Virus record (IMG/VR): IMGVR_UViG_2693429524_000013
Source: a virus
Lineage: Duplodnaviria > Heunggongvirae > Uroviricota > Caudoviricetes
Reading direction: 5' to 3' (one strand)
DNA: 13,512 bases
This document shows, one piece after another, positions 1,495 to 13,361 of this stretch (positions are counted from its first letter, which is position 1; each line of letters starts with the position of its first letter). Made by a program: the position numbers and the translations under genes. The notes beneath the pieces were generated by a model. It saw only the letters and a list, made by a program, of their open reading frames with translations. It had not been told where the DNA came from and ran no database searches.

Positions 1495-1699
1495 ATTAAA
1501 CATGCCTCCAAATTGGTCCACTTCTTTCGCTGGCTTAGCCAGGTGACTAAGGTCACCCCTTCGGGCGTGAGTGGATTTAGCTAAAGCTAAACCTGCAAAA
1601 GATGCAGGCAAAATAGAACTTATCGTTGCCCTGCTTAAAATCTGCAGAAAATACAGGGCAGTTATTCGTTAGAATCGCTTATAGCTCTTCCCGAGAGCG

Positions 1700-3459: not shown

Positions 3460-3787
3460 TTGATCACCTGCGATTTAAATTAACTCCCCTCAAAGAGTTC
3501 CGGTATAACCTCTCAAACCGCGACAGGCTCGGGCCGAAAAGTTATGCCGGAAATCTAAAGGGAAATTGATACAAGGAAAGGGAGATAGCCCCGCACCGTC
3601 CAAGCGGGGGCTATTCCATATGGGGAAAACCAACAACAGTTGGCTGATAGTTCACAGTATGGTTACGGTTACTAGAGAGCACTATCACGAAAGGCACTCC
3701 CCCGAATCAGTTCAGGCTGCGGTCACATCAGCGGGGAAATACCTTTCGGGATAGCTACCCACACAGAAAACCCGCAAAAGAAAACTG

Positions 3788-4449: not shown

Positions 4450-4710
4450 ATGACGGGGGCTAAAGATATCAGGAGACTGAGGGAAGAGCTGATAGCTGAA
4501 ATTAAAGCTAAGGCAAAGCAAATGGAGATAGCCGCACAAATGGATGTAGCGGAACAGATGTACAAGATGGTTGAAGAGGGAACACCACGACAGGTTATCG
4601 CTAAAACCTTCGGTGTGGGGATCGCCACCGTGCACAGAAGGCTGAAAGCCTATGCCGACTACCACAACATTGAGAGAGGGGAGGATGGGAGATTTAAGAA
4701 GAATAAATAG
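4450..4710 (+). CDS. small helix-turn-helix DNA-binding protein (86 aa)
   Basis: ORF 4450..4710 with GAGGAG SD. Segment TPRQVIAKTFGVGIATVHRRLK is a classic HTH pattern. N-terminal part reads as coiled-coil-like. Confidence 0.6.
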   Translation: MTGAKDIRRLREELIAEIKAKAKQMEIAAQMDVAEQMYKMVEEGTPRQVIAKTFGVGIATVHRRLKAYADYHNIERGEDGRFKKNK

Positions 4711-4767: not shown

Positions 4768-5289
4768 ATGTTATTCCAGAAAGACAAAGAATCAGTAAAT
4801 AAAAGGCTTTTTAAAGAACTGGTAAAAATGTTCTTTCAGTACACTGCAGCGTTTTTGATAGCCGGGCCTTGGTTAATGGCTATCTGTTTTTACCCTGCTA
4901 CCTTGTTTATTGGCAGTAGCAAGTTCGGCGATGGCCCGTTTCATGTGGATATTGGTTTTATAGATTCTCTCCTGATCCGTCCTATAAATGCTGTTCTCAA
5001 TGCTTTCTACTTCCCAACTAGTCTAGAGGGGTGGGCGGTAACCTGGGGTGTTTTAGGCTTAGCATATGTATATTGGTTGGTTGGCTTTTTGTGGGGTGCA
5101 ATCTGTGCTCTCCTCGATATTGATACAGGATCAAGCCGTAGGAGTAGTGGTAATAATAGCGGAGCGGGTGTATATGCACACGTAGGTACCAGAGGGGTAA
5201 GTATCACCGCAGGTACCCGATTCGCTGGCGGCTGGCTGAGTATAGGCAAACGCGGCGTTAGTTGGAGAAAAAGCAAAAAACTGTTCTGA
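4768..5289 (+). CDS. predicted membrane protein (173 aa)
   Basis: ORF 4768..5289. Recurrent motif ends 11 nt before the ATG, followed by AGGGG SD. At least two hydrophobic helices (FFQYTAAFLIAGPWLMAICFYPATLFIG and AVTWGVLGLAYVYWLVGFLWGAICALL) and a Gly/Ser/Arg-rich C-terminal tail. Followed by a strong intrinsic terminator. Confidence 0.6.
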   Translation: MLFQKDKESVNKRLFKELVKMFFQYTAAFLIAGPWLMAICFYPATLFIGSSKFGDGPFHVDIGFIDSLLIRPINAVLNAFYFPTSLEGWAVTWGVLGLAYVYWLVGFLWGAICALLDIDTGSSRRSSGNNSGAGVYAHVGTRGVSITAGTRFAGGWLSIGKRGVSWRKSKKLF

Positions 5290-5296
5290 CCTACCA

Positions 5297-5318
5297 GGGG
5301 GCCATCACGGCCCCTTTT
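5297..5318 (+). terminator. rho-independent terminator after the membrane-protein gene
   Basis: GC-rich 6-bp stem GGGGCC/GGCCCC with 5-nt loop, followed by TTTT (5315-5318). Lies 8 nt past the stop at 5289. Confidence 0.6.
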
Positions 5319-5404
5319 CTATTTCCAGTCGCTATAGCTCCTGAGTAATTCCACTCCCTGAGGTCGTGATCAATTCCACACCCTACCCCCTGATCAATTA
5401 ACCC

Positions 5405-5448
5405 CTATTTAATGGGTATTTAATGCCTATTTATTGATTTAATCCGTT
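5405..5448. repeat. AT-rich 11-bp tandem repeats (3-4 units)
   Basis: ctatttaatgg / gtatttaatgc / ctatttattga / tttaatccgtt in perfect tandem from 5405. Period is about one helical turn; candidate DNA-unwinding or bending element. Confidence 0.5.
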
Positions 5449-5514
5449 TTATGCCACAACCGCCCGGTTGACAGAGTAAGAGAGAGGGTGTAACCCTTTT
5501 TCGTAATACTAATG

Positions 5515-5530
5515 AAATCAATAAGTTAGC
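5515..5530 (+). repeat. 16-nt direct repeat AAATCAATAAGTTAGC, copy 1
   Basis: Exact 16-mer also at 13259-13274. Both copies are preceded 13-14 nt upstream by TAATA(C/T)T and lie shortly after a gene end. Confidence 0.5.
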
Positions 5531-6618
5531 TTAATAGGCCTTTTCTCTATTTTTGTCAAATTTAACATACCCTAAAAAACTGCAAAATCTGGCTGCAAGA
5601 TTATCTGCAGCTGGATTTCTTACACCTCATTTTGTGGTATCACCCTGACTAGTTTGTGCATAAATTGAACAGTTTTTAACATTTCCTCTTCACCTGGTAA
5701 CCACACAAAAAGCTAAAAACGAGGCACAGATAATCTTAGAGGCCTATTTTCTTGTTATCACTCTGGAAACGTCGTAGAAGTGATTTTGATGAAAGGCGAC
5801 CTACCCTATTACACCCCCATTTTTTGTTATCACAATTGCATCCTGTGTGGCTATATGGCTATGTGCTGAAAGCGGTCTCGGGTGTGGGTGTCAGAAATAT
5901 CCATTAGCGGTATTTGAGCTTATGGGTAACTCGTCTGAGGTGCCAGGCAGGCGCTCCCCTACCTCCCTTTTTTCTTCTAACAATTCTCAAATATCACACC
6001 ACTGCCCACCACGTTGCTATTATGTTAATTCTTAAGCTTTGCTGTATGTTGTGCACATTATTTATTCAGGTGGCTGTACGTAAATTCTGTGCCCACTGAT
6101 CATGATTTTTAAATCAGATTTTGTAGTGCGGTTTCTTAGTGCTGATAAGATCTATTATGTTAAATGCAATTTTCCCAACCCTTCAAATCAATGACTTACA
6201 TGTAAGCATGCACTAACACCACACACAGCACATTAGACGTATAGATGGCTATATCCCACATATTTGATTGTTTTGTAGTCATTCCCCTGATCATTTAACC
6301 AGTATAGTTTGTTATCTGCAGACCACAAAATCGGAATTTACATCTGATTAACATAATCTGTTAGCATGATCACCATTACCCACACAACAATAACCCCATG
6401 TAAGCCTCTTCAGGCAATTTATCGGCGTGTTGGTGTGAACAGTCTTTCATGTTCTTTATGTATCAGTTGTCCTGTGTGGTGATTTGGTGGACTGCCCCAG
6501 GGGCCATACTTATGATGCCCGGTCAACATAGCTGTTGATAAAATCAACGGGTGTTGACCTGCATATTTCCCACACATGAGAGGAAATCAGAGCAAAGAGA
6601 GAGGAGAGAGGTTTGTTA

Positions 6619-6668
6619 GTCACATATGGTGATTTGAGCTCATCTCAAACCTTCTACGAAGGCCTTTG
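6619..6668. repeat. tandem-hairpin element, copy A
   Basis: Hairpin 1: TTTGAG (6633-6638) / CTCAAA (6644-6649). CC linker. Hairpin 2: CCTTC (6650-6654) / GAAGG (6658-6662) with loop TAC. Flanked by TCACAT..GGTGATTTGAG and GGCCTTTG. Homologous to copy B. Confidence 0.5.
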
Positions 6669-6719
6669 CTAGTCAAAATCAAGTCACATTAGAGTCAAAT
6701 CAGATGCAATCAATCCCCC

Positions 6720-6778
6720 ACCTGTTGGGATTTCCCACATGTTCAACCATACACAGGAGCTAACCTGTTGGGATTTCC
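6720..6778. repeat. pair of 16-bp direct repeats ACCTGTTGGGATTTCC
   Basis: Identical 16-mers at 6720-6735 and 6763-6778 (43 bp apart). They share the ACCTGT core with the iterons immediately downstream. Confidence 0.6.
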
Positions 6779-6813
6779 TACAACCCCTTTCAGTCATACT
6801 CAGGCACCACACC

Positions 6814-7054
6814 CCGGTAAATATTTCCCTACTACCCCGGAGAATTTCTCCGCACTACCTGTAAAGAATTTTCACACCTGTGTGTTTATACAATCATACT
6901 CTCCTGTTTTGCAGTCATTGCACCCATGATACACAGCCCTAACCTGTAAAATATTTTTACTACCCCGCCAATAATACGGCCCATACCTGTAAAATATTTT
7001 TACTACTACCTGTCAAAATCTTTTACTACTACCTGTAAAAATATTTGACACTAA
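6814..7054. repeat. iteron array: six direct repeats of a ~21-23 bp unit
   Basis: Copies of CCTGTAAAATATTTTTACTAC-like units start at 6814, 6858, 6953, 6986, 7009 and 7032. The last three are exactly tandem at 23-bp spacing. Same orientation throughout; no ORF. Confidence 0.7.
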
Positions 7055-7101
7055 TAGATAAAGTAATAGACCACACAATAGATCCCCCTAACCCCCCAGG
7101 G

Positions 7102-7142
7102 GGGAATGGGGAGGGATCAGAGAGTGGGGAAGGTTTTCTAAG
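7102..7142. other. C6-A-G6 palindrome followed by G-tract-rich block
   Basis: CCCCCCAGGGGGG (7102-7114) followed by GGGGGGAATGGGGAGGGATCAGAGAGTGGGGAAGG. Four G-runs of 3 or more; possible G-quadruplex on the plus strand. Confidence 0.35.
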
Positions 7143-7245
7143 GGAAAAGCTTAACCCACAAATGAAAGCCTAAAGAGCATTAGCGACTCTTTAGGCAATC
7201 TGTGTGTGGGGTGACAATGTATTCCATACATGACACGTCACCCTG

Positions 7246-7316
7246 CTCACATGTGTGGTCCACTTCGTGGATTTGAGTTCACTCCGTAACTCAAACCCTC
7301 TACGAGGGCCTTGTGT
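7246..7316. repeat. tandem-hairpin element, copy B
   Basis: Hairpin 1: TTTGAGTT (7272-7279) / AACTCAAA (7288-7295). CC linker. Hairpin 2: CCCTC (7296-7300) / GAGGG (7304-7308) with loop TAC. Differs from copy A by a T-A to C-G double change that keeps the pair. Confidence 0.5.
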
Positions 7317-7410
7317 GGGGAGCGTAGTGCGATAGCACGTAGCTATATAATGTGGAGTCCGGATAAGAGACTTCTGTTTCCAATCCGGACCGTTTAAGCG
7401 AGTGGTTTCT

Positions 7411-7436
7411 CGCGCGCGTGCACGCACACATATATA
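7411..7436. other. 26-nt perfect alternating pyrimidine-purine tract (Z-DNA-prone)
   Basis: CGCGCGCGTGCACGCACACATATATA alternates pyrimidine/purine without a break for 26 nt. Read directly from the sequence. Confidence 0.5.
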
Positions 7437-7616
7437 AAGGATACACTCATAAATCGAAAATAAGGCCCCTAAATGGCCTTCTGGCTGCATTAACTAGTTT
7501 GAGTAGTGTAATTGCATTACCTGATGCTCAAATCGCGTTGTAGGGCCTCTTATGATGTTTGAGTTTAACACCCTCCAAAGTTTTAACAAAAAGTGCTCTC
7601 CCTCCATTGTGGGCCA

Positions 7617-7646
7617 TTGACAATCTTATTGCATAAATGCTATAAG
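7617..7646 (+). promoter_or_regulatory. possible second plus-strand promoter
   Basis: TTGACA (7617-7622), 18-bp spacer, TATAAG (7641-7646). Motif CCATTGACAAT recurs at 7745 within a perfect palindrome ATTGACAA-ttgg-TTGTCAAT (7746-7765). Confidence 0.3.
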
Positions 7647-7936
7647 TTATTCTGTTTTTGACACGGTAGGGGACATTAATAATGCTTACCCCTTTGCTGT
7701 GGACTTGTTTGTACCTATAGCTCGCCTAAATGATAATGATTCCCATTGACAATTGGTTGTCAATATGATAAGATTATAGATAGTGGGAGAAACAGATCCG
7801 GAGGTCAACGTGGAACTGAGCGACGCTATAGCGATCATCAACCTGGCTGTAATGTGGTGCGGTGTTGCCTACATAGCCGGAGTAACTGCAATCGACAACC
7901 TTGAAGAAAAAATGATAGATAAATACAAAAAGATTG

Positions 7937-7965
7937 TTGACAATCTCGCAAATAGCTGATAAAAT
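7937..7965 (+). promoter_or_regulatory. sigma70 promoter for the plus-strand operon
   Basis: TTGACA (7937-7942), 17-bp spacer, TAAAAT (7960-7965). The -35 sits in an imperfect palindrome GATTGTTGACAATC. About 120 nt upstream of the first gene (8088). Confidence 0.5.
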
Positions 7966-8016
7966 ATAAAGCATAGGGTAATTCTCATCATAGTGAATTT
8001 TCCTTTAATGAACTGG

Positions 8017-8044
8017 CGGGAGCTATTAGTTCCCGTTTCTTTTT
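8017..8044 (+). terminator. terminator-like hairpin in the leader of the plus-strand operon
   Basis: CGGGA (8017-8021), 9-nt loop, TCCCG (8031-8035), then TTTCTTTTT (8036-8044). Lies between the promoter at 7937-7965 and the first gene. Short stem, so modest confidence. Confidence 0.35.
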
Positions 8045-8087
8045 AACCCTATATCGCACAGGCGGTGAGCTAACAGGAGATTGAATC

Positions 8088-8297
8088 ATGGCTAAAACCG
8101 GACCGATAAGCCAGCTGGTAAACTGGACTACTGACGAAATCGTCGAGAACGTGCTTAAAGGTAACTTTCGCAAAACTTCCGTTTATGCATTTATTCGAAA
8201 ACATAAAGGAGAATATCCACACATTGAAGCGGCAATAGAAAGATTAAACTTTATTAAACTTGAGCGCCAGCTGGAAAGATATAAACATCTGATTTAA
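8088..8297 (+). CDS. small protein (69 aa), possible regulator
   Basis: ORF 8088..8297 with CAGGAGA SD 6 nt upstream. First gene after the promoter at 7937-7965. Basic and small; function not recognised. Confidence 0.55.
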   Translation: MAKTGPISQLVNWTTDEIVENVLKGNFRKTSVYAFIRKHKGEYPHIEAAIERLNFIKLERQLERYKHLI

Positions 8298-8317
8298 TAA
8301 ATAATTGTGAGGGAATT

Positions 8318-9202
8318 ATGGCAAACAATAAACTGGGGGCACATTTCACCCCCATTTTTAAACGTTTTATCAAGTATAATTTTGAAAATCCAATTGCAAA
8401 AACTACAACAGGCAAAGAGAGATTTAATTTAAATGCGACGGAATTGATAATTTACGGGGAAATGGTTGGCTTTCATTTAAACGGCAAAGAAATATTCATC
8501 TCGGAGCAGACCTTAGCAGATGATTGGGATTTTTCAAGACCAACGATTATTAAAGCTATTAAATCTCTAGTAAATGCTGGGATTATTTCTAAAGATAACC
8601 GGAAAGGCAAATCTAACATTTACAAACTGTTAATTACACCTGAGCAGTTTGATAAAATGTGCGATGAGCAGGGTATTAAAACCTTAGACAGTGTGGGAGA
8701 CAGCAAAGAGGCACCTGCTACACAGGCCCAAGATAATCAACAGGAAGCCCCAAAACAAGCCACACAGCAGCCTGAAAAGCCCGAGGCAATGCAATCCCCT
8801 TCCCAACCTAAAAAAGAACACAGAGAACGCCGTAGAGACGCTGGCAAACGTGAAATAGATGAGCACGGTTATCCGATTCTGACAAGCGATGAAATGAATG
8901 CCAGATATAAAGTAATTCAGGCCGCATTTAAAGATCAGAAGAGAATTAAATTATCTGAATTGCGTGATACATTTTACGGGCCGGAGGTGATGGATAAAAT
9001 TAAAGGCACTATTCCTGATAAAATCTGGAAAGAGGAAGATTACTGGCACCTGACAGAGCAGGCCCTTAAGGTAGCTCAACACGTGGTTAAAAGAGGCAAA
9101 TCAATTATTATTGATTCTATTAGTCATGGCTATGATGCACCGAAAGAAAGGTTGTGGAACAACTGCAAGCTTGTAAAAGGCGAATTGACAATTACAAAAT
9201 AA
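8318..9202 (+). CDS. winged-helix DNA-binding protein (294 aa), possibly replication-initiator/organiser-like
   Basis: ORF 8318..9202 with GAGGGA SD. N-terminal pattern (ELIIYGEMVGF...ISEQTLADDWDFSRPTIIKAIKSLVNAGIIS) resembles wHTH domains of phage O-type/DnaD-like replication proteins. Q/P/K-rich low-complexity linker, then a C-terminal domain. Family assignment is inference. Confidence 0.55.
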   Translation: MANNKLGAHFTPIFKRFIKYNFENPIAKTTTGKERFNLNATELIIYGEMVGFHLNGKEIFISEQTLADDWDFSRPTIIKAIKSLVNAGIISKDNRKGKSNIYKLLITPEQFDKMCDEQGIKTLDSVGDSKEAPATQAQDNQQEAPKQATQQPEKPEAMQSPSQPKKEHRERRRDAGKREIDEHGYPILTSDEMNARYKVIQAAFKDQKRIKLSELRDTFYGPEVMDKIKGTIPDKIWKEEDYWHLTEQALKVAQHVVKRGKSIIIDSISHGYDAPKERLWNNCKLVKGELTITK

Positions 9203-9478: not shown

Positions 9479-9964
9479 ATGTTCAAATCTGATCTTTCTG
9501 ATTCCCAATTTGAAAAACTGGTAGCACTGCAGAAATACCTCCCCAGTGATGATCAACCAACACGACAGGCCAAACACTTATTAGTCGAGGGCTTTACCCC
9601 TGAATTCGTTGCGGAATATACAGGCGTTAAACTTGAGAAAGTCCAAAAACTATATAATGAGTCCTGGAATCCACGGTGTCGAGTTCCCCTCAGTGTCTAT
9701 AACGACATAGATAGAGATAAAAATGTCTTCGAAGATCGCCGCCGCAAATCTCTTTTAATGTGGAATTGTGGGATGAATATTGAAGAGATAGCAAAAGAAT
9801 TAAAAGTAACCTGCTTTCATATATGGGGCTTGTTGAGCGACCTCCTGCCACGTAAGGAGCTTAATCAACGTTTGCCTAAGCCCGGTAGTCGTGCTTATCG
9901 CGAATTTATATTCATCTACCGCCGCCATAGCAATAAAGTCCGGAAAGCAATGCAGCGCAAATAG
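9479..9964 (+). CDS. putative DNA-binding regulator (161 aa)
   Basis: ORF 9479..9964 with GGAG SD. Two HTH-like segments (PEFVAEYTGVKLEKVQKLYNE and MNIEEIAKELKVTCFHIWGLL). Basic C-terminus. Confidence 0.55.
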   Translation: MFKSDLSDSQFEKLVALQKYLPSDDQPTRQAKHLLVEGFTPEFVAEYTGVKLEKVQKLYNESWNPRCRVPLSVYNDIDRDKNVFEDRRRKSLLMWNCGMNIEEIAKELKVTCFHIWGLLSDLLPRKELNQRLPKPGSRAYREFIFIYRRHSNKVRKAMQRK

Positions 9965-13247: not shown

Positions 13248-13258
13248 TATTGTGATCT

Positions 13259-13274: not shown

Positions 13275-13296
13275 CTGACCGGATAAACTCCAGGCA

Positions 13297-13328
13297 AGAA
13301 AAAAGCCCCTAAGTGTTAACAAAGGGGC
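13297..13328 (-). terminator. terminator-like hairpin, minus-strand orientation
   Basis: GCCCCT (13305-13310) / AGGGGC (13323-13328) with 12-nt loop. Preceded on plus strand by a run of six A (13299-13304), so on the minus strand the hairpin is followed by six T. Would terminate a leftward transcript from beyond the window end; could also weakly terminate the tape-measure operon. Confidence 0.35.
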
Positions 13329-13361
13329 TCTTCTCCGGTATCCTTTTGATGCGGGGCAAAA

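Follow-up and report, generated by a model that had tools for sequence, protein, structure and literature searches.

Rickettsia palindromic elements (RPEs), attributed to Ogata et al. in 2000, are reportedly non-autonomous and are said to insert in frame in protein genes as well as between genes. The GC clusters of mitochondrial DNA, such as yeast GC42, and the double-hairpin elements of Allomyces mitochondrial DNA are hairpin elements of 30-80 nt with no coding capacity (PMC4478555; Paquin et al. 2000 as cited there), and the mechanism of GC cluster mobility is still unresolved according to the same source (PMC4478555). In T4-type phages, small PeSL (promoter-early stem-loop) cassettes place stem-loops where closely related genomes differ by insertions, deletions and replacements, and are thought to have been moved by recombination between short motifs (PMC2839356). 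The stretch analysed here (IMG/VR record IMGVR_UViG_2693429524_000013, 13,512 nt; hereafter the window) is the whole of a circular Escherichia coli 'plasmid' of ~13.5 kb, and carries two related hairpin clusters, copies A and B. These belong to a structure-defined, insertion-polymorphic family that is common to two replicon types, this plasmid and the rV5-like phages. On balance, A and B are probably copies of a small, non-autonomous mobile DNA hairpin element that has spread at the DNA level, and not an RNA control site.

Copies A and B as insertions

Both hairpin clusters were confirmed in the window sequence. An earlier, sequence-only reading had described a tandem unit of two hairpins at nt 6619-6668 and 7246-7316; these are the last two hairpins of the element, which also has a third hairpin on the 5' side, and the cores run from nt 6620 to 6664 (A) and from 7259 to 7311 (B). 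Each copy consists of three contiguous hairpins without spacers, H0-H1-H2 (Table 1). The two have in common the string GATTTGAG...CTCAAACC[T/C]TCTACGA[A/G]GGCCTT, and include a direct repeat with 21 of 23 positions identical (nt 6644-6666 and 7290-7312), for which the chance expectation in the window is ~0.003. The differences between them are as that reading had them: in H2 a T-A pair of A (CCTTC-TAC-GAAGG) is a C-G pair in B (CCCTC-TAC-GAGGG) around an unchanged TAC loop, and the H1 stem TTTGAG/CTCAAA is kept while the loop differs. With DNA parameters the triple hairpin is the minimum free energy (MFE) fold of both copies on both strands (z-scores of -3.7 for A and -4.2 for B). With RNA parameters and wider flanks, A folds no better than shuffled sequence (z -0.3) and B favours another fold. 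Neither Rfam (E<=1) nor a tRNA/tmRNA scan returned a match at A or B, no boxA-like sequence adjoins either copy, and the six sites called by an intrinsic terminator scan of nt 5200-8400 include neither of them. Their trailers, CCTTTGC and CCTTGTG respectively, contain no T-run.

A and B are both insertions. When nt 5200-8400 were compared with nine relatives (blastn), the alignment broke exactly at nt 6622/6665 and 7258/7312. In the multiple alignment the relatives read GGTTTGTTAGTCAAAATC at the A locus, where the window has TTTGTTAGTCA-(42 nt)-TTTGCTAGTCA, and CACATGTGTGGGGAGCG at the B locus, where the window has TGTGTGG-(53 nt)-TGTGTGG. The comparison of filled with empty alleles was restricted to pairs of genomes with a real gap. 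Empty alleles hold one copy of each flanking repeat, the one at the A locus being written TTTGYTAGTCA, and in relative L130 the two repeats that flank A are identical. Copy A is present in three of the 24 genomes mapped (window, L130 and L131), and its site is empty in at least eight relatives. The B variant was found in the window alone among the 24; L007 and L134 are among the relatives in which its site is empty, and L009, L131, L141, L142, L136 and L138 carry other variants there.

The window also contains empty sites that are filled elsewhere. At the stop codon of the tape-measure gene, 13 relatives read CTAAT-(46 nt)-CTAAT directly after the stop. The element there has the same three-hairpin architecture with another last stem (CCTGC-ATA-GCAGG), and the variant in L009 reads TTTAGCT-TTC-AGCTAAA followed by CCCTC-TTCG-GAGGG. 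At the equivalent of nt 13248, L130 carries a different insert of 21 nt (CTGGAAGATAGTGCAGCTTTA), and the position after the tape-measure stop, with no fewer than three kinds of occupant, is thus a hot spot for insertions in general.

A hairpin family in plasmids and rV5-like phages

A scanner for three contiguous perfect hairpins was applied to ten genomes and gave 66 matches, against 4-9 in shuffled sequence. With 14 further genomes added through capsid homologues, 24 were mapped, and ~19 distinct sites were found, 12 in the plus and 6 in the minus orientation. The number of genomes filled at a given site ranges from 1 to 13, and a single site may hold as many as five unrelated variants. A survey of 25-90-nt insertions between aligned genomes that was blind to structure returned 46 loci, 29 of them perfect triple hairpins and several of the remainder imperfect, nested or composite versions. 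The elements are 36-53 nt long (H0 4-6 bp, H1 5-8 bp, H2 3-6 bp; loops mostly 3-4 nt) and 44-64% GC, and have no coding capacity and no terminal inverted repeats (their ends are, for example, TCCAC... and ...GGGCCT). A miniature mobile element is recognised by sites that are filled in some genomes and intact but empty at the orthologous place in others, and by the recurrence of related copies at unrelated loci and on more than one replicon; both are seen in this family.

At least four copies lie in the window, namely A, B and a nested pair (nt 1517-1608) in which an element of a second subfamily interrupts the H0 loop of an outer one. The nested fold is the MFE structure (z -4.4), and the outer element stands uninterrupted in L134 (TCCAC-TTC-aTGGA TTTGGCT-AAA-GCCAAA CCTGC...). 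The inner element was detected by the scanner and by a covariance model (47.8 bits, E 2e-9); copies at other sites in relatives, and copies in rV5-like phages, match it with 80-90% identity. Tandem arrays also occur, with TGTGTGG between copies. The degenerate third copy that had been proposed at nt 5896-5930 did not hold up: it shares just GGT.ATTTGAGCT (~11 bases) with the element, has no partner arm and no element fold, and was not matched by the covariance model, which also missed A and B. A second candidate, the partial inverted match at nt 7542-7565 with TTTGAG...CTCAAA at nt 7499-7533, was rejected as it shows no triple fold and no model match, and the region is conserved in relatives. 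A tRNA-like cloverleaf with a closing stem was likewise rejected, the closing pairs being inconsistent (just 0-5 bp).

Some copies lie within genes. Two genes of relatives carry in-frame insertions of 51 nt (17 codons), one with the element antisense, which lengthens a 61-aa protein to 78 aa, and one with the element sense, which takes a 129-aa protein to 144 aa; in L006 a copy lies within the initiator gene. Sites in coding sequence make up 3 of about 18, as expected if selection removes most such insertions. Parts of elements may also behave independently. Beside the lone hairpin after the capsid stop codon (Table 1), L005 has an inserted H0+H1 module (site 2049) that completes a full triple hairpin. 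Elsewhere in L005 (nt 9597-9671, equivalent to ~1987) an extra hairpin, GCTCTC-GGCT-GAGAGC, plus 10 nt lies inside a triple-hairpin element with a GCTAA duplication, and single hairpin modules can apparently be added alone. Copies within one genome are the most alike, since A and B of the window share H1 and H2 and the two copies of L009 share H0 and H1, which suggests recent copying inside a genome together with module exchange.

That pairing is kept through sequence change had been proposed from A and B, and the proposed search of relatives with a covariance model bore it out, far more strongly than a pair of copies could. The model was built from 13 variants and gave 75 matches in plasmids and phages; it did not recover A or B themselves. 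The 33 distinct members show strong covariation: in an alignment fitted to the model from seeds chosen as perfect hairpins, 97.3% of cells are paired, compared to 70% with partners shuffled and 28-48% with partners slid; 11 of 14 pairs have changed on both sides, and the covariation score of 0.647 (0.170 in shuffles) was reached by 0 of 500 shuffles. Stems of different variants can be wholly different in sequence and still be paired. Subject to the same limits of seed choice and alignment, the fold is conserved through compensatory change while the sequence diverges, and the near-pure Watson-Crick stems (428 Watson-Crick pairs, 5 G-T and 1 A-C, with 445 cells given for the G-T count) look more like DNA palindromes than an evolving RNA helix. 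The loops are mostly of three bases, which on the complementary strand read GAA, GTA or GGA.

The leaders of the elements are specific to subfamilies (GTGGGA, CATGGGA and TGTAG; TCR for the CTGGC subfamily), and targets are also preferred, one subfamily being inserted after ...GTGTGG^ and another after ...CTT^ (caret, insertion point). Besides the clean flanking repeats listed in Table 1, other junctions have repeats of just 1-4 nt, and the lengths overall are 1, 2, 4, 5, 7, 8, 10 and 11. Such variable repeat length argues against a transposase of fixed stagger and fits microhomology-primed copying or variable staggered breaks. An element of the MITE type, dependent on a DDE transposase, was also rejected, there being no terminal inverted repeats and no target duplication of fixed length. 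The heptamer TGTGTGG is a favoured junction for the hairpin elements.

The same heptamer is strongly enriched in the window: its 20 occurrences, which lie on both strands, compare with an expectation of 1.4, and none of 200 shuffles had as many. Examples are found at nt 3786, 4333, 5844, 6473, 7203, 7252 and 7312 of the plus strand, and at nt 1424, 3759, 4276, 5701, 6219, 6380, 6570, 7071 and 8217 of the minus strand. It is often followed by a -10-like A/T-rich hexamer. The rV5-like phage naswa has 52 sites, clustered in its own ~2.5-kb non-coding region. TGTGTGG may be a phage-specific promoter or protein-binding site.

A pattern scan of IMG/VR returned one true copy, in a 137-kb contig that represents an rV5-like (Vequintavirus) phage. 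At this locus (the L154 site) ~118 rV5-like phages are 47-48 nt shorter and just 1-3 are filled. Compared with phage CM1 the copy is a clean 46-nt insertion, TTGC-CTCTTTCG(core)CGG-CTCTTCAGG versus TTGC-CTCTTCAGG, with CTCTT duplicated. At least 18 rV5-like phages carry the identical 44 nt elsewhere, at a non-coding locus, and CM1 has two element copies. The whole genome of phage naswa was scanned and holds no element (13 weak matches versus 4-7 in shuffles, none family-like). Matches in a metagenome scan were confined to contigs of the plasmid family or of rV5-like phages. Among 5,426 complete E. coli genomes no chromosome carries the element, which is found in plasmids of this family alone. 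The H1+H2 pattern, scanned across the genomes of 100,044 species, gave 8 matches in unrelated taxa, none with an H0 and all attributable to chance; in IMG/VR the pattern GATTTGAGN{3,14}CTCAAACC gave 120 chance matches, none with a second hairpin, and TTAGC...GCTAAGCCCNTNGGG gave none. As far as searched, the family is confined to one ~13.5-kb E. coli plasmid lineage and the rV5-like phages.

The neck, Dit-like and tape-measure proteins of the plasmid are 45%, 50% and 25% identical to naswa gp39, gp47 and gp46, respectively. This homology and the shared elements make it probable that the plasmid is a satellite of rV5-like phages, or at the least a relative residing alongside them, and that elements pass between the two. 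A literature search turned up no account of such elements, whether from rV5-like phages or from plasmids of this family (a weak negative), and none of such a plasmid-borne Vequintavirus satellite.

Table 1. Hairpin elements, insertion sites and flanking repeats (caret, insertion junction).
Feature	Position (nt)	Strand	Sequence	Basis or remarks
Copy A, triple hairpin	6620-6664	+		Sequence, DNA fold; CC follows H2
A, H0	6620-6632	+	TCAC-ATATG-GTGA	Sequence
A, H1	6633-6649	+	TTTGAG-CTCAT-CTCAAA	Sequence
A, H2	6650-6662	+	CCTTC-TAC-GAAGG	Sequence
A, left flanking direct repeat	6612-6622	+	TTTGTTAGTCA	Last 3 bases are part of H0; single copy in relatives
A, right flanking direct repeat	6665-6675	+	TTTGCTAGTCA	Single copy in relatives
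Copy B, triple hairpin	7259-7311	+		Sequence, DNA fold; CCT follows H2
B, H0	7259-7271	+	TCCAC-TTC-GTGGA	Sequence
B, H1	7272-7295	+	TTTGAGTT-CACTCCGT-AACTCAAA	Sequence
B, H2	7296-7308	+	CCCTC-TAC-GAGGG	Sequence
B, left flanking repeat	7252-7258	+	TGTGTGG	Single copy in empty alleles
B, right flanking repeat	7312-7318	+	TGTGTGG	Single copy in empty alleles
Outer element	1517-1608	+	H0 TCCAC...GTGGA	H0 arms 1517-1521 and 1571-1575; loop interrupted by inner element
Outer element, H1	1576-1591	+	TTTAGC-TAAA-GCTAAA	Sequence
Outer element, H2	1592-1608	+	CCTGCA-AAAGA-TGCAGG	Sequence
Inner nested element, second subfamily	1530-1565	+	CTGGC-TTA-GCCAG GTGAC-TAAG-GTCAC CCC-TTC-GGG	Leader TTCTTTCG (1522-1529), trailer CGTGA
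Lone hairpin just after capsid stop codon	2050-2062	-	CCTTC-TTC-GAAGG	Sequence
Empty insertion site overlapping tape-measure stop codon	13244-13254	+	CTAAT^ATTGTG	Junction between 13248 and 13249; filled in 13 of 24 relatives, two variants
Empty insertion site	7201-7211	+	TGTGTGTGG^GG	Filled in 8 relatives by 4 variants
Clean flanking repeat			CTCTT	5 nt
Clean flanking repeat			CTAAT	5 nt
Clean flanking repeat			GCCCCTT	7 nt
Clean flanking repeat			TGTGTGG	7 nt
Clean flanking repeat			TGTGTGGG	8 nt
Clean flanking repeat			TGTGTGTGGG	10 nt
Clean flanking repeat			TTTGTTAGTCA	11 nt

The replicon and its other small cassettes

Plasmids of the same family as the window were found in 7 of the 5,426 complete E. 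coli genomes, and several PLSDB records also belong to it. Identity to these relatives is ~90-94%, and their typing is non-mobilizable; genomes of the family number ~440 or more (cluster P0001 and others). The minus strand of the window encodes the major capsid protein, a Dit-like baseplate protein and a neck protein, while the plus strand encodes an 86-aa protein with a resolvase-type helix-turn-helix (HTH_7; nt 4450-4710), a lambda-O/DnaD-like replication initiator, several unknown proteins and the tape-measure protein. No terminase, portal or integrase was seen among the genes of the window, and no relatives of the capsid protein were found in IMG/VR. The region from nt 5290 to 8318 (3 kb, 22% of the replicon) has no convincing open reading frame and is strongly mosaic among relatives. 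Iterons are located at nt 6720-7050, between A and B (ACCTGTAAAATATTTTTACTAC five times at nt 6856-7049; ACCTGTTGGGATTTCC twice at nt 6720-6782), and the initiator gene (nt 8318-9202) lies downstream of them; this is presumably the origin and regulatory region. Searches of the 3-kb non-coding region (megablast and blastn) against 50,697 phage records returned no match.

Other small cassettes are present in the same region. One of ~90 nt (nt 7612-7702) comprises a perfect sigma-70 promoter, TTGACA-N17-TATAAG (nt 7617-7646), followed by a GGGG...CCCC hairpin. It is missing in L002 and L005 and is flanked by TGTGGGC and TGTGGAC; this second type of small polymorphic cassette recalls the PeSLs of T4. 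Between two TGTGTGG motifs, nt 7210-7242 form a two-level hairpin (GGTGAC-A-ATGTAT-TCC-ATACAT-GACAC-GTCACC) that is absent or replaced in L001, L004, L005 and L008 and may be another hairpin-type cassette. Two terminator-like hairpins lie on the minus strand. That at nt 7168-7196, which includes TGCTCTTTA, has a stem of 11 bp with a T-rich tail behind it; the other (nt 13294-13334) gave a sub-threshold Rfam match to ctRNA_p42d (23.6 bits, gathering score 50) and is most likely just a terminator.

Among the relatives, L005 (NZ_CP043822.1, 39,610 bp) is a head-to-tail trimer of the 13-kb unit in which one unit is degraded and its baseplate/capsid region truncated; the record represents a multimer or else an artefact of assembly. 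In L139 (NTNY01000053.1, a 30-kb contig), nt 13400-21041, a member of the family is joined to aminoglycoside phosphotransferase (APH(6)/APH(3'')), DDE transposase and TetR genes. It may be a phage-like plasmid with an acquired resistance region, or a cointegrate.

Proposed mode of spread and comparison with known systems

If A and B are mobile hairpin DNA, we infer that the elements would spread at the DNA level during joint replication of plasmid and phage, using host or helper enzymes. The palindromes would fold into hairpins or cruciforms at which replication stalls or a structure-specific nuclease cuts, endonuclease VII, which phage naswa encodes, being a candidate. Repair or copy-choice synthesis could then prime on a few bases of homology at the preferred targets, and through this priming step the new site would gain a copy of the element while its short target sequence became duplicated. 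Stem complementarity would be kept because an element unable to fold could not spread further; intrastrand template switching may also restore both arms in one step, template-switch correction of quasi-palindromes being a known mutational route in E. coli. As folding would be needed for spread, or would be restored by template switching, the compensated pair between A and B can be read as divergence between sister copies of a structure-dependent mobile element, and not as evidence of an RNA site.

Several points weigh against this reading. No transposition event, intermediate or enzyme was observed, how the elements move being itself inferred, and Pfam and PHROG searches of the plasmid proteins found no mobilising enzyme. 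The copies are highly divergent, unlike a recent burst from one master copy, and hairpin modules seem to be exchanged or added separately (L005 at site 2049; variants at site C), so that the unit may be looser than a classical element. Flanking repeats of 1-11 nt, often imperfect, fit target duplication, microhomology-primed copying and short-motif recombination alike. The choice of perfect hairpins as seeds and the fitting of the alignment to the model inflate the percentage paired and depress the G-T counts. Some copies, for example those right after stop codons, may have a cellular or regulatory role. It is possible, but in our view doubtful, that the family is a new kind of structure-defined mobile DNA passing between a plasmid satellite and its rV5-like helper and mobilised by a dedicated activity, either a fold-recognising nuclease or primase, or SINE-like target-primed reverse transcription of an RNA intermediate, which would also account for target duplications of variable length.

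The sequence-only reading took A and B to be a cis-acting RNA (a nut/put-like antitermination site, a protein-binding site or a small RNA module) with two copies in a leader region, maintained by selection on RNA folding. This accords with their common orientation upstream of the plus-strand operon that starts at nt 8088/8318, with their placement on either side of the iterons, with the compensated pair and with the strong covariation across the family. The A site is, however, empty in at least eight close relatives and the B variant is found in none of them, while other copies are antisense to transcripts or lie within genes. There is also no Rfam match and no adjoining boxA, the three hairpins differ from the two-stem fold of put, the RNA fold of A with its flanks is no better than that of shuffles, and G-U pairs are nearly absent. 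Because neither position nor orientation is conserved, the RNA proposal is largely refuted, and we give it very little weight. Its own alternative, that the copies are a DNA duplication, came closer to the truth, in that they are copies, but of an insertion element. Equally improbable is an explanation without any mobility, by which an ancestor carried all of the palindromes and lineages lost different ones through slippage between the flanking repeats. Each clean polymorphism is formally reversible, and E. coli is well known to favour deletions between short direct repeats on either side of a palindrome. Loss alone does not sit well with cores that are 80-100% identical at unrelated sites in plasmids and rV5-like phages, with one element lying in the loop of another, with 17-codon insertions in otherwise conserved proteins, with as many as five unrelated variants between flanks of >90% identity, or with a phage site that is empty in ~118 genomes and filled in one to three.

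Transposition of single-stranded DNA by an HUH (Y1) enzyme, of the REP/BIME-RAYT or IS200/IS605-like type with the hairpins as recognition structures on one strand, would explain why the elements are defined by hairpins and have no terminal inverted repeats, and why subfamilies have their own target motifs ahead of the element (...GTGTGG^, ...CTT^). The H0 and H2 loops on the complementary strand are often GAA, GTA or GGA, a type of stable DNA triloop, and those with a TAC loop contain GTAG. We nevertheless think this improbable. GTAG is missing from most variants; no Y1/RAYT domain was found in the plasmid proteins or in the phage 'transposase-like' protein (the naswa protein so annotated, and an HNH protein of the same phage, have no transposase domain); IS200/IS605-type insertion proceeds without target duplication, 3' of a fixed tetra- or pentanucleotide, whereas clean duplications of 5-11 nt are found here and just the ...GTGTGG^ and ...CTT^ preferences bear a likeness to a fixed target; and there is no strand bias with respect to transcription or the iteron origin, the 12 plus and 6 minus sites lying on both sides of the origin. 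The less remote, though still unlikely, alternative is that the elements are regulatory hairpin cassettes (3'-end stabilisers, terminators or TGTGTGG-linked barriers) that are moved between short conserved motifs by phage-type recombination and are selected for function rather than being selfish. Sites just after stop codons (tape measure, 13248; capsid, 2050-2062), a site in L130 after the terminator-like hairpin at nt 5296-5316, and the many copies that abut the enriched TGTGTGG, which also flanks the promoter cassette (nt 7617-7646), are all in keeping with such a role, and PeSLs in T4-type phages provide a precedent (PMC2839356). Yet no copy is followed by a T-run, A and B were not called by the terminator scan, copies occur in both orientations and within coding sequences, most sites are filled in a minority of otherwise near-identical genomes, and nesting in the loop of another copy is hard to explain by function.

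Compensated pairs between two copies are not in themselves a sign of a regulatory RNA, as hairpin-dependent selfish DNA gives the same signature. The hairpins of phage and satellite genomes reported here make up a family of very small insertion elements that seems not to have been described before; it remodels non-coding regions, adds 17-residue segments to proteins and is one source of fine-scale mosaicism between near-identical phages. The shared elements, TGTGTGG and the homology of neck, baseplate and tape-measure proteins tie these 13-kb E. coli 'plasmids' to rV5-like phages as a probable satellite-helper pair, and the ~19 sites that are polymorphic among 24 genomes point to sufficient activity for the mobility of hairpin elements to be studied in E. 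coli.

Several known systems resemble the family in part. Like the put sites of HK022 and the nut sites of lambda, A and B are two copies per genome with multiple stem-loops and compensated differences, but put and nut, which act as RNA, keep one position and one orientation downstream of early promoters in every relative, whereas A and B are missing from most relatives and members of their family lie within genes and in either orientation. A PeSL combines a sigma-70 promoter with a terminator and flanks whole genes; the elements of this family have neither promoter nor T-run, form the inserted unit by themselves and may be located within a gene. REP/BIME sequences (RAYT-associated) and IS200/IS605-derived elements are likewise short extragenic hairpin repeats of E. 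coli without terminal inverted repeats that often follow stop codons; the present family is unlike the E. coli REP consensus, is absent from chromosomes, has target duplications and both orientations, and no RAYT or TnpA was found with it. RPEs, at 100-150 bp, are chromosomal and far more uniform than this family of 36-53 nt, which adds 17 codons in two genes. The nearest analogues appear to be the mitochondrial GC clusters and double-hairpin elements. As described in PMC4478555, these are sporadic between close genomes and have short flanking direct repeats, their changes fall mostly in loops or are compensated in stems, and they undergo merger, nesting, module shuffling and occasional insertion in genes, with no known mobilising enzyme. 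The elements of the window differ in residing in a bacterial plasmid and phages, in having three hairpins rather than one or two, in not being especially GC-rich, and in having repeats of 1-11 nt instead of a fixed AG or ACT; with no sequence similarity between them, the likeness is one of analogy and not homology.

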